Source: Eledone cirrhosa (taxonomy: Eukaryota). Taken from it: 64,000 bases of DNA. Both the position numbers and the translations under genes were made by a program. The notes under the pieces were generated by a model. That model was not told where the DNA came from and did not search any database. It saw only the letters and a list, made by a program, of their open reading frames with translations. Below are positions 49,604-54,679 of this stretch, piece by piece. The stretch is from NCBI GenBank assembly GCA_964016885.1, contig OZ024741.1, positions 356,748,001 through 356,812,000 on the forward strand, read 5' to 3'. Position 1 is the first letter of the stretch. Each line of letters opens with the position of its first letter.

Positions 49604-49901
49604 TGTAATATTTTCCACCATATATATTTAAATGAAATGAAAAGGGTGTGGGGAGGCCCATACACATAATTAGACACCGCAACATGGGGCGCTGGATTTT
49701 CCCCCTAATAATTTTTGAAGCAAAGAAACATATTTGCGGCCTTGTCGCGGGTGGCAGTGAGGCTAAAGCACCCCACGATTATCACCTAACACCTCGACAT
49801 AGCGGGCCACCAACAATGACAAGAACATTGTTGTTAGTGGCCAAGCTCTCCCAAAACGTCTCGAAAACCACAGACTGAAGAAAATACTGTAGTAACCTAC
49901 A
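49604..49901 (-). mobile_element. Unrelated LTR-like block capping the broken integrase
   Basis: Minus strand reads TGTAG...TTACA; GC-richer than flanks; no TSD seen. Confidence 0.4.
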
Positions 49902-52900
49902 GTGAAATGTTTGTCAGTACGTGCTAACACACGGTAGGGTCCAGAGTACGGTTGTGTGAGGGGTGGAGTAACCGCATCGTTTCTGACGAATACATGTGTC
50001 CACGAGGCAATATCCCTCGGGACTGCAGCTTTAATAGTTTGTTTCCTAGTATTCATGGGCGGTAAGTCCTGAAAATAGGAGCGCAAACGAGATACGTAGG
50101 AAACAGGGTCCTGAAAAGCAAGATCAACAGGGGCAAGCATTTGCTCAGGCAACGCTAGAGGAGTACCATACAGTAATTCGGCCGGGGAGAACCCAAGGTC
50201 CTCCTTTATTGATGGCCGAATTCCTAACAACACAATAGGAAGGTACTCGTTCCAACGTTGAGAGTCTGGATAGGCGCGAAGAGCGGCCTTTAATTGGCGG
50301 TGGAATCGTTCCACCATTCCGTTTGAAGCAGGATAGTAGACTGTGGTCCGAATCCGTTGAGCGCCAATGATCTGTGTGAGCTCAGAGAAAAGATGAGACT
50401 CAAATTGTCTACCATGGTCTGGGGTGACTAGTTGGTACCCCAAAGCGGGTAATCCACCCTGATACCAGGGCACGCGCTACAGTCTCAGCAGTTATATCTT
50501 TTAAGGGGATGGCTTCAGGCCATCGCGAAAAACGATCGATACAGGTCAAGAGGTACGAATATCCACTGCTGAATGGCCAAAGTCCAACGATATCAATGTG
50601 GATGTGTTGAAAGCTAGCATCTGGAGTACTGAAAGTACCAAGTGGAGTCCGGATGTGTCTGTGGACATTAGATCTCTGACACTGTGTGCAGGAACGGCAC
50701 CAGACAGTAATTTCTCGCCTCATATTGGGCCAGAAAAATCTAGCCGTTATAAGCTTTACTGTGGTAGAAATTCCTGGGTGAGAAATGCTGTGCAAAGCAA
50801 GGAACACAATTCGACGGTGAGTCTCAGGAACAAATGGCCGTGGTGAATCCGTAGATACATCACATAGAATCTGCCTGTCGGTGGTCGACTAGGGCAGATA
50901 TTTGAAGATGCAAGTCGCAAATTCGGCAGAAAGAGTATCCAACGATTGGAGTGCAGGTTGGTCAGCAGCTAAACGACTTAAGTCGATCTCCTGGGATGAC
51001 GAGATGGAGCTGATTGGCAAACGTGACAATGCGTCTGCAGCTATGTTATGCGAACCAGCAATGTGCTGGATATCATTTGTAAATTGCGAAACGTAATTCA
51101 GGTGCCTTGTCTCTCTGGGTGACTATCTGTCGGCTTTAGCCCTCAAAGCGAAGGTCAGAGGTTTGTGGTCGGTTAAAACAGTAAAATTTCTCCCCTCAAG
51201 AATATGAGAGAAATGTTTCACCGACAGATATATGGCTAATAATTCCCGCCCAAACGTGCTGTAACGCGTTTCTCCTGGTTTCAGCTTCCTCGAGAAAAAT
51301 GCCAAAGGTTGTTGGTTTCCAGCGTTGTACTGCTGTAAAACTGCTCCCACAGCGGTATAAGATGCAACAACACAAAGCGAAAGCTTGGCCTCTGGTACCG
51401 GGTGGGCTAGCAAAGATGAACTAGCGAGTGCTGTCTTGGCAGTCTGGAAGTCTTTAAGTTGTCCTTGTGTCAAGGAAATATCCTCATTCTTCTTACGACG
51501 ATTTTTCAAAATGTCAGTAAGGGAAGATAGCAAATTAGCACAATGAGGAACGAAACGCCTATAGAAATTGATTAGGCCTAAGAAGTGACGCAACTAGTGA
51601 AGTGTAGTAGGCGGAGGTAAATCCTATATGGCTTGAACTCGCTGAGGGAGCGGCCTAATACCTTCGGCGTCGATGAGGTGGCCTAAAAAATTTAGCAAAG
51701 TGTAACCGAAAACACGCTTTGCGGGATTCACACGAACGCGGTAATCCTGAAGTCGCCGAAATAAGAGATGCATGTGGCGCATATGCTCTTCCGGAGAGGA
51801 ACTAGCGACGAGAAGATCGTCTATGTAAGCATAAACGAAGTCCAGACCACGAGTGACTTCGTCTATGAACCGCTGAAAAGTGCTAGCGGCGTTCCTGAGT
51901 CCGAAAGGCATGGTAAAAAATCCGAAGGATCCGAAAGGAGTTGTAATCGCCGTTTTTGGAATATCCTCCTTCCTGACCGGAATTTGGTGGTAGGCTCGCA
52001 CTAAATCTAGTTTTGAGAAAATCTTACACCCCTGCAATGAAGATGCGAAATCCTGGAGAAGGGGAATGGGATACCTATCCGGGTCTGTCATAGCATTTAA
52101 CCTCCTGTAATCCCCAGTGGGTCTCCAGTCGCCGGAAGTCTTGGGCACCATGTGTAACGGTGAAGCCCAAGGGATCGTAGATGGGCGAATAATGCCCAGC
52201 TGCAGCATATGGTCGAACTCGGACCGTGCTGCCTTTAATTTGTCCGCCGGTAAGCGACGTGGACGCGAAAACACTGGAGCACCGGTGGTGGAAATTAAAT
52301 GTTCAGTTGAGTGTGTTGGCCCAGTGACTCGAAAATTTCCATCGGTGAGCTCCGGGAAGGAACCTAACAACGAATGGTAGGCGTCTCCAGCGGCAGCGAT
52401 GAAGAATATGGGGCTGAGTGTTGGAAAATTGGCTTTCCGGCCACGAATTGAAAAACGGGTGATGTCATCCACCAGGCGTTGGCCACGGACGACCACAGTC
52501 AAAGAGAAGTTGTGGAGGAAATCCGCTCCTAAGATAGAGTATGGCAAATCGGCAACCGTAAAAATCCACTTAAAATCCCTACGAAGATTTAGGAATTTGA
52601 GAGGAAGCGAGATTTGTCCGTACGTCTTTATAGACGAGTAATTAACGGCCTGCAGAGTAACGGATGACTCCATGGGGGTATCTTTCAGGCAATGGACCGG
52701 CCAAATACTACAGGAGGCTCCTGTATCCACAAGGAAACCTTTTCCCGACATAAGGTCCTTAATGAAGAAATGGCGGTTTGGTGGCTTTATGTTGAGGTCA
52801 ACTGCCCCCATCAGCGGACCTCTTTGGCGTTTCCCGCCTTATGAAACGAGCAAGGTTGCACGCAGCGGTTCCCGCTCTCGGTGAATCGCTCATGGTACCA

Positions 52901-54679
52901 GCATAAAGATGAAGCTGGTGACTTGGAGTGGCGTCTAAAAGATTGAAATCTCCCGCGGCTGCGGAGGCGCGAACGGGCACCACACCAGACCTTAATCTTC
53001 TAGAGCTCCAGGGTGATTTTCTGAATGGCCCTCTGCATCGCCATAATAGCTGAGCTCTCTGTAGGAACTGCCGCGCAGATGGCATGACCAGGTGTGGCCT
53101 GAGCTGGTTGGGAAACAGCGGCAAGGGCTTCGCTGCCTCCAGCACCCGTAATTTCGAAAACTTTGTCCGCAGAGGCGGCAAGCTGATCCACCGTGCAAGT
53201 ATCCCTAATGGGGGCCAAAATTGCCTGTACTTTGGTCGGTAGGCGCGAGAAGAACAACTGCCTCAAGATGGCAGTTTCCGCTACCAACCCCTCCGTTAGG
53301 TCCTTCATTCGCCTTAGGAGGTTCGATGGGATGCCATCACCGATATCCTCCAGATGGACCAGAGCCCTAAACCTTTTTTCTGCGGACTGTGCAGTCCGGC
53401 TGAGTATTTCAGCCTTCAGAGACTTGTACGTCGCGTCGGTGGGTGTCTCTAACACCAGGTCCTTAATCGCTGGGATAAGTGCCGGCGGAATTGCACTAAG
53501 GGCCAGAGGATGTTGTTGTGCCTCGTCAATTCTGTTCGCCTCGAAAAATGCTTCGAGTTGGGCGAACCATAACCTTACGTCGCCCGTGTACATAGGTAGA
53601 ACAGAATGAGATGCCATTGGTATACCGTAGGTAATCTGCCAAAATAAAAATCGTCTCTGTTTGGAAAAATGTGGTTGGTGTTTCACTCCGTCAGGGTCAC
53701 CATTTTAGTGGTTGGTGTTTCACTCCGTCAGAGTCACCATTTTAGTGTAATGTCTACGTAACTATAACCACTAATTTTTATAAAGAAAAGGATAAGATAT
53801 TTTTATATAACACCATGTCGAATGAGAGTTAATTCCCATTACAAAGGTAATGATAAAACGTAAGCAGTTTCTCGGAACGAGTATCAAATATAAGTCTTAA
53901 TTTTTTTATTGTAGCTCCATGTTATAATTGTTGTAAACAAATATTCTCGTACATAATTAGGTATAGTCCAGATCCATGATAGGTGGTTAGATAAAAGTTA
54001 ACATGCTTGTCTTCAGTGTTGTCAGTTCGAAGGAAGGCGCCAAAAGAGAAAATTGCCTCACGTTCTCAAATATATAGTCCCCAGGGGGACGCAACTCCAT
54101 TTAGTACATGGATCTGCCACTGGGAGTCGCGACCGTCACAAAGGGACGCAGCTCCTATACTATCTGCCACTGTGAGTCGCGACCGTCACAAAGGGACGTA
54201 ACTCCTATACGTGCTGAGTTACAGCCGTAAGGGGCTGCTACAGTATCCTCCTCCAGACGCTAGGCGAAAAGCCCGAAGGTAACTGTAGCGAACCCACAAG
54301 CATGGGCTTCCAGCACAGGCATGAAATATTAACGCAAAGATACAGGCATGAAATGGTAACGAAAAGGTACATGTATAAATCAGGCATGAAATGGTAACGA
54401 AAAGGTACATGATAATACAATAAAGAGAAAAACAAAAAAAAAAAGTTTCATGTGGCCAGTTCACATGAAAACAGTTTGGCAGAGTTTTTTGGGCCAGTAG
54501 ACTCTTCGACCGGAACGGGTTGTGGTCTTGTATGTAGGTGAAGGTGGGACAGAAGGAGCATGTGTATGCACAAGAGAGAAAGATTGGGGTATTTGTGGCT
54601 CGGGTGTATGAGCGTCATTGTATTCCCCTTTTAGTCTATCCACCGAAATTGTCTCTCTGGACCCCTTAATGTCTACAGT
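49897..54679 (-). mobile_element. Ty3/Gypsy LTR retrotransposon, circularly permuted: IN C-terminus, 3'UTR, PPT, LTR (54242-53741), PBS x2, gag, PR, RT, RH, IN N-part
   Basis: gag LWFAQLEAFF and CWYH..C...[71 protein letters not shown]; several stops and frameshifts. Confidence 0.92.
53671..53747 (-). promoter_or_regulatory. Tandemly duplicated (37 bp x2) primer-binding site, tRNA-Trp-like
   Basis: TGGTGACTCTGACG and TGGTGACCCTGACG immediately after the LTR end; complementary to the tRNA-Trp 3' end (..CGTCGGGGTCACCA) with 1-2 mismatches. Confidence 0.75.

Follow-up and report, generated by a model that had tools for sequence, protein, structure and literature searches.

Anatomy of the insertion

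Positions 49888 to 55156 of a 64,000-nucleotide stretch of Eledone cirrhosa contig OZ024741.1 (assembly GCA_964016885.1, positions 356,748,001 to 356,812,000, forward strand; hereafter the window) hold a scrambled Gypsy long terminal repeat (LTR) retrotransposon, in which two adjoining blocks are inverted in place between ordinary element ends. The retrotransposon is a common one, and this single copy of it is dead and has no evident function. The two pieces of its split integrase (IN) have 913 and 632 candidate matches in the 3.0 Gb genome, and 60 family copies, picked among the best matches, were fetched for comparison and are referred to as natural copies. The labels alpha and beta for LTR subtypes, B for a sister family and X for the target repeat are our own. 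From left to right the locus reads as follows, where TSD is target site duplication, PBS primer binding site, PPT polypurine tract, UTR untranslated region, PR protease and RT reverse transcriptase.

49766-49887, + strand: left half of the older dispersed repeat X, the target site (267 candidates, 67-87% identity)
49884-49887, + strand: left TSD ATAC, matching the family's 4-bp TSD
49888-49896, + strand: U3 terminus TGTAG and TAAC, the latter filler or mutated U3; unique in the genome
49897-49903, - strand: IN heptamer ACTGTAG, at which the N-terminal part of integrase stops, from translation and copy alignment
49897-52838, - strand: pol with PR, RT, RNase H and the N-terminal part of IN, from open reading frames with several stops and frameshifts
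52850-53617, - strand: gag, with an in-frame stop at 53002-53000 (Pfam DUF7041)
53618-53672, - strand: final 55 nt of the leader of the family itself; the joint occurs once in the genome
53674-54049, - strand: sister-family B segment of 376 nt, R-U5 ending in CACTAAA and two 37-nt PBS-like units (95.2% to copies L084 and L085)
54045-54242, - strand: inner U3 and start of R, subtype alpha, with a TATA-like box from 54076; from family alignment
54243-54288, - strand: heptamer CTACAGT of the inner 3'UTR, followed by spacer and a PPT that ends in ATAC; from natural-copy comparison
54289-54679, - strand: C-terminal integrase (73 codons, stop at 54460-54458) and 3'UTR, from translation and alignment
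54673-54679, + strand: inversion joint with 7-bp microhomology; unique in the genome
54680-54718, + strand: outer 3'UTR end and PPT, from family alignment
54719-55156, + strand: complete 438-bp family LTR, subtype beta, TGTAG...CTAAA (91-98% to other copies over most of 54845-55120)
55157-55160, + strand: right TSD ATAC, the same 4 bp as the left TSD
55157-55260, + strand: right half of the split repeat X, continuing the left flank in 8 of 11 copies

The initial annotation had described 49897-54679 as a circularly permuted, single-LTR element broken at a duplicated ACTGTAG. The heptamer is indeed present twice on the - strand (49903-49897 and 54679-54673), but it fails as an element boundary and the LTR is not the only one, since at the second heptamer there follows, in inverted orientation, a complete family LTR with its PPT and the final 46 nt of 3'UTR. 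Reading outward from the first heptamer, TAAC is followed by the U3 terminus TGTAG (49888-92) and ATAC, while at the right end the outer LTR closes with CTAAA (55152-56) and is likewise followed by ATAC. By chance, at the composition of the flanks, ATAC would be expected with a probability of 0.005 and TGTAG with 0.001. Natural copies also run from TGTAG to CTAAA, and of the 30 in which both ends were called, 19 are flanked by an exact TSD of 4 bp; the continuation of the left-flank repeat X in the right flank is significant against shuffles (p<0.01), the flank offset being -4 or -5 in five copies of the repeat. Since attachment (att) ends and a 4-bp TSD thus split an older repeat, we can conclude that 49888-55156 (5,269 bp) is one integrase-type insertion in + orientation. 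The possibility that the heptamer itself is the TSD was rejected, as the TSD of the family is 4 bp and is located further out. The left flank at 49870-49892 (+ strand) resembles the element's own PPT with transitions only; other copies of repeat X read similarly and it is therefore target sequence, although it may have helped a template switch.

In the family order the 5' LTR and gag-pol up to the IN word form block 1, the rest of IN with UTR and PPT forms block 2, and the 3' LTR follows. In the window blocks 1 and 2 each occur once, each inverted in place, and only short ends are doubled, namely 9 nt of the left end, the 7-nt IN word and about 42 nt of 3'UTR and PPT. The content is accordingly nearly copy-neutral, two LTRs and one internal domain being present, each once, and on this reading the inversion step loses nothing. 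Because two adjoining in-place inversions read identically to one rotated and inverted unit, the latter is what the initial annotation saw. Each of the three inversion joints lies at a copy of ACTGTAG/CTACAGT, and an inverted repeat pairs 54062-54288 with 54673-54849. Read on the - strand, the heptamer at 54673-79 is the IN word, and read on the + strand it is CTACAGT, the 3'UTR word; since one word serves both on opposite strands it is an inversion joint with 7-bp microhomology. At the left joint it is TGTAG that faces the host flank and not the IN break, and the AC of the TSD forms with TGTAG a 7-bp hairpin with the adjoining heptamer.

The four joint patterns searched match once each genome-wide and a piece on the opposite strand was found in only two of the 60 natural copies, both short, so that a family-wide trait is rejected as far as tested. 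The exact PPT-LTR-PBS patterns had no genome match in two LTR-length windows, the scope being unmutated joins of these two lengths. The structure is a variant of known complex LTR insertions, and the scrambled copy is probably a unique, one-off accident and no new type of element. The anatomy given here, with two LTRs, TSD, inverted blocks and a chimeric inner LTR, is very probably correct.

Short-read contigs bear on both ends. A contig of 1,683 nt, present in three runs of one sample, covers 49300-49926 with 0-1 differences, extending over unique flank, TSD, TGTAG and TAAC and reaching 30 nt into antisense IN, and at the right end contigs from 55130 in two of the three runs go from the sense-strand U5 end through the right TSD into the flank. 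Under a 31-letter bridging rule the left TSD joint passes (39), the filler joint (30) and the right end (27) being just short. Since the left contig carries antisense IN and the right one sense U5, at least one strand switch inside the unit exists in the DNA of this sample, which may however be the assembly's own source. The flanks are uncovered in the runs X4 and X5 of restriction site-associated DNA sequencing.

Split integrase and chimeric inner LTR

The claim that the two integrase pieces are exact continuations of one another has held. The piece ending at 49897 translates as ...YSGPYRVLARTDKHFTV and the continuation from 54679 as TVDIKGSRETISVDRLK...TRSGR...FM*, and when the two are aligned separately to the natural copies, 57 of the 60 show an overlap of exactly 7 bp, the remaining three having small local deletions. 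The order IN(C)-PPT-LTR-PBS-gag-pol-IN(N) is thus real. Nor does the C-terminal piece come from another subfamily, the difference to the nearest copies being 3.0-3.9% for the N-terminal and 2.7-4.1% for the C-terminal part. From the exact overlap and the similar distances of both pieces it follows that the rotation is real, of unit length and confined to one family.

The heptamer at this position is ACTGTAG in 33 and ACAGTAG in 24 of the overlapping natural copies, and none of the 60 is broken there. Small deletions at or directly after it, that is, at the break site of the window, are seen in three of the 60 (L105, L122 and L137). The word ACTGTAG/CTACAGT occurs seven times in the unit against 0.66 expected from composition, and only two of these copies lie in pol. 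The duplication of the heptamer is junction microhomology with the element's own 3'UTR word and is no footprint of insertion. Furthermore, since both break partners carry the word and pol holds only two copies of it, two coinciding breaks in IN need no circle.

The 3'UTR word and the word at the PPT/U3 border are the arms of a 13-bp stem around the PPT (54225-54310, - strand), with a folding z of -1.9, 11 of 200 shuffles folding as well. By eye, the same stem is found in the sister-family copies L088, L093, L094, L096 and L100 with a G-C to A-U change beside TG, and such a PPT-bracketing stem may be a conserved cis-element for plus-strand priming.

An inner LTR followed by a PBS had also been proposed. 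The LTR exists, but it is a chimera of family U3 (54242-54045, - strand) and 376 nt of R-U5 and PBS-like repeats from sister family B (54049-53674, - strand), the pol of which is 63-64% identical to that of the window and which likewise has the CHCC Gag motif. Family sequence ends at 54045, and the U3 of the matching sister copies (L084, L085) has no match in the inner LTR. This region lacks the PBS of the family itself together with about 480 nt of its leader, and the return joint from the sister segment to the family leader has 2 nt of homology. The two families are joined within a (TC)n run common to both, 27-31 nt beyond the TATA-like box (54076), where R should start; the equivalent point in the sister family is 26-34 nt past the TATA box in 15 of 29 LTRs and 74-90 nt in 11, three being uncalled. 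This position suggests strong-stop transfer between co-packaged RNAs. A standing chimeric subfamily was rejected, as family U3 was found in none of 19 sister-family loci examined, 40 of 324 candidates having been scored.

The inner U3 is of subtype alpha and the outer LTR of subtype beta, the two differing at 4 of about 175 shared positions and by one 50-nt unit, where natural LTR pairs differ by a median of 2.8% (29 pairs). In sister-family copies L151, L152, L155 and L156 the U5 end of the LTR carries 0-2 tandem 37-nt PBS-like units, and a single element can have unequal numbers in its two LTRs, which looks as though priming had slipped from one unit to another. Copies of about 2.7 kb coexist in that family with copies of 4.9 kb.

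Origin of the rearrangement

The reading we consider an even bet is that one TSD-flanked insertion with two LTRs was rearranged in place, after integration, by template switching; the likelihoods given for this and all other readings are judgements and were not computed. Reverse transcription of co-packaged RNAs would have yielded a cDNA with unequal LTRs, the 5' one consisting of alpha U3 and sister-family R-U5 with PBS and leader lost and the 3' one being beta, and integrase would have inserted this cDNA at ATAC. A replication or repair polymerase would then have made three template switches at copies of ACTGTAG/CTACAGT. Synthesis from the left would fold back on AC-TGTAG and jump to the IN word, the 5' block would be copied backwards and through the TSD, and the polymerase would cross from the start of the 5' LTR to the homologous PPT and start of the 3' LTR, thereby forming from the same copy the join that defines a 1-LTR circle. 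The 3' block would then be copied backwards to the IN word, with a return to the forward strand at the 3'UTR word. The same sequence would alternatively result if a circle had been excised from the sister chromatid and then copied back in place. Fork stalling and template switching (FoSTeS) and microhomology-mediated break-induced replication (MMBIR) are replication template-switch models, and inverted segments with short joint repeats are what the present copy shares with events of this kind.

As to the order of events, the four nucleotides before the inner LTR are ATAC, the TSD of this insertion, which fits a switch to the PPT from the 5' end with its adjoining target bases. Natural copies have GTAC (53), GTTC (1) or GCAT (1) at this place, five of the 60 being uncalled, so that ATAC at the PPT-LTR joint is found in none of 55 called copies, and G>A changes at the G sites of the PPT number 4 in 385. 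Rearrangement after integration is therefore favoured over a product of RT or a foreign 1-LTR circle. Furthermore, rare variants are shared with the alpha copy L066 at 15 of 36 sites in gag-RT and 1 of 20 in RNase H-IN-UTR (Fisher p 0.005; split post hoc), the heptamer state of the window occurs in 15 of 16 beta and one of six alpha copies, and the top two of 57 UTR matches are beta, like the outer LTR. These patterns hint, weakly, at a lineage signal colinear with the original order before inversion. Subtype-diagnostic sites are too few to paint the element as alpha or beta, and private variants are alike inside (36/4,373) and outside (3/472).

Several observations nevertheless weigh against an in-place rearrangement of this kind. 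The ATAC argument concerns one base and was noticed post hoc; in this recombining, star-like family diagnostic sites are few, which leaves the lineage signal weak, and L066 is perhaps a recombinant too. The loop TAAC differs from inner U3 CAGC at two and from outer U3 CGGC at three positions, and because it mismatches both, a plain fold-back does not predict it. The two best full-length sister donors have their joint 74-90 nt past the TATA box, and unequal LTR subtypes are rare in natural copies, L133 being the only clear case in the 25 for which both LTRs were typed. An allele without the rearrangement was not seen, and the three inner joints are not among the read-contig matches listed. In addition, the two-family joint, the equal apparent age of the parts and the PPT stem at the right joint point to events before integration.

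These latter features suit an origin in which the whole structure was made in the particle by RT and inserted once by integrase. A strand primed inside IN would run to the RNA's 5' end, transfer to the 3' end and stop at its starting point, which gives exact unit length without a covalent circle; a second minus strand, halted at the PPT hairpin, would offer an ACTGTAG end for pairing with the CTACAGT end of the first, each priming the other. The two-family joint suits strong-stop transfer, the right joint lies at the 5' arm of the PPT-bracketing stem, and all parts seem equally old. TSD-flanked complex insertions ascribed to abnormal template switching have been described (PMC1950507), and recombination during transposition is frequent in Onsen, in that account within the family (PMC5668417). 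However, at least three RNAs and about five switches would be needed in one particle, an end with only 5 bp of att would have to be integrated, the source of the internal primer is unexplained and the inner-joint ATAC is left as a coincidence of about 1%, and we regard this origin as possible, if on the unlikely side. It appears, to a similar degree, rather doubtful that RT made a circle (or its gapped precursor) carrying a two-family LTR which, once opened at the att-like IN word, was rescued into an animal germline via the att ends of a second cDNA or a resident copy.

The proposal of a 1-LTR circle opened in IN fits as to topology, but the stretch sits inverted inside an ordinary TSD-flanked insertion with both att ends. 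The unit-length permutation and the PPT-LTR-PBS join of a free circle are present, albeit with a chimeric LTR and with family PBS and leader missing, whereas the LTR is not the sole one, host DNA does not adjoin both breakpoints and an integrase TSD is seen. A free circle simply opening and entering host DNA is thus contradicted by the att ends, the 4-bp TSD and the second LTR. A version in better agreement with the ends is that the chimeric-LTR circle of another copy, opened at the IN word, was captured inverted during repair of a resident beta copy, the 5' LTR and internal domain of which it would replace. This accounts for topology, unit length and the different subtypes of inner and outer LTR, and is furthermore in line with reports that replication of HMS-Beagle and nomad yields mainly 1-LTR circles (10.1101/2022.09.25.509424; PMC12951756) and that integrase-independent Tf1 insertions prefer PPT homology and resident elements (PMC11042837). 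It requires however that the acceptor lost the matching stretch between U3 base 6 and the UTR word, leaves the left joint without direct homology and ATAC unexplained, and sits poorly with RNase H-IN-UTR looking beta, like the outer LTR, rather than alpha, like the inner U3; we hold such a capture to be improbable. The rotated order and doubled heptamer could also come from a free circle with one LTR, or a product of autointegration, that opened in IN and entered naive host DNA with the heptamer as its footprint, or from two unrelated truncated copies adjacent by chance. Here the heptamers adjoin no host DNA, having the U3 end on one side and family UTR, PPT and LTR on the other, and one TSD encloses everything, which makes these the least credible of the readings. 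Autointegration is rejected in particular, since, according to the account of that process in PMC7197481, it joins LTR ends to an internal target and no joint here sets an LTR end on such a target, the right joint being between IN word and 3'UTR word. Finally, the insertion may be real and its interior mis-assembled from chimeric reads or several copies, given the hundreds of family candidates (913) and three inner joints that are each unique and lack listed read matches. Against this stand the strand switch in sample DNA implied by the contigs at both ends and the base-exact homologies of the joints, and mis-assembly seems very improbable, if slightly less so than entry into naive DNA.

[quoted passage not shown] Inverted segments with short repeats at the joints are shared, but ODIRA as presented there yields triplications, whereas the window is nearly copy-neutral with duplications below 50 nt.

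Related systems, neighbouring features and meaning

On the features compared at sequence level, the element appears to fit the CsRn1 clade of Ty3/Gypsy (CsRn1, PwRn1, AgCR; PMC2582038), with which it shares the CHCC Gag motif, the order PR-RT-RNase H-IN and a 4-bp TSD. The Gag motif of that clade is given as CX2HX9CX3C (PMC2582038); the zinc finger of the window, from 52903, reads CWYHERFTESGNRCVQPC, and the motif is found in 39 of the 60 natural copies. In pol a DTG protease motif precedes RT, and the Pfam domains RVT_1, RT_RNaseH_2, Integrase_H2C2 and rve follow in order. TGGTGAC starts at 53739 and 53702 and also follows the 5' LTR in natural copies, and it matches the first 7 nt of the tRNA-Trp PBS motif published for the clade (PMC2582038). 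The window copy differs from the clade in being rearranged and dead and in that its PBS-like sites are sister-derived.

The insertions described by Sabot and Schulman in 2007 (PMC1950507) share with the present copy a single TSD around an internal LTR with PPT on one side and PBS on the other. In that account, however, they contain two complete internal domains and three LTRs, all in direct orientation and the outer ones matching, whereas the present copy has one internal domain, inverted and rotated, one end of 5 bp and two differing LTRs in opposite orientation. HIV-1 proviruses resemble it in having unequal LTRs in one integration (26 of 88), attributed to intermolecular strand transfer, and rare internal inversions (PMC9278108), but these cases are mostly 3' LTR deletions, and a two-family LTR or unit-length rotation is not described in the part of that report drawn on here. 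With 1-LTR and autointegration circles the present copy shares the PPT-LTR-PBS join, and inverted and circularly permuted forms do occur in particle DNA (PMC7197481; 10.1101/2022.09.25.509424; PMC4751563), among them circles with inversion and deletion in Arabidopsis particles (PMC7197481). Those circles are extrachromosomal, and in autointegration the joints use LTR ends, which those of the window do not. It should also be mentioned that 1-LTR circles are abundant and seldom integrate (10.1101/2022.09.25.509424; PMC12951756), that circles can arise from chromosomal copies too (PMC4751563), and that a preference of integrase-independent insertion for PPT homology and resident elements is reported (PMC12786077; PMC11042837). 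A literature search that reached few subscription journals listed no account of an LTR element integrated between TSDs and at once inverted and rotated, which is weak evidence of novelty.

Elsewhere in the window a solo LTR of the same family, subtype alpha, is found at 21090-21621 (+ strand) with a 4-bp TSD GATT. Many of the natural copies L063-L144 lack the same part of gag (window 53054-53604), with broad gag coverage in 29 of the 60, and such gag-deleted copies probably form a non-autonomous subfamily. A 180-codon open frame at 48468-49010 (- strand), about 880 bp from the insertion, has an acidic middle and two hydrophobic stretches and is possibly a host exon. An intronless 317-codon frame at 40895-41848 (+ strand) is, judging by motif, presumably short-chain dehydrogenase-like, a 448-codon frame lies at 17934-19280 (- strand), and 23852-27138 (- strand) and 34032-36224 are, likewise by motif, taken to be two remnants resembling long interspersed nuclear elements.

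The biological weight of a single dead copy is small. It is however a well-resolved case of an LTR element scrambled at base-exact microhomologies with a perfect TSD kept, and it documents that two Gypsy families with pol genes of only about 63% identity have exchanged sequence, at or close to where R is predicted to start. Unless both flanks are read, a rotated single-LTR pattern is furthermore no proof that a circle has re-integrated. Should a circle nonetheless have been involved, the copy would bear on whether retrotransposon circles can re-enter a germline and would be a fossil of circles that were not dead ends, and if such a circle was rescued via att ends, the att-like heptamer at U3, PPT, 3'UTR and IN would constitute a built-in hot spot for strand switching or cutting by integrase.

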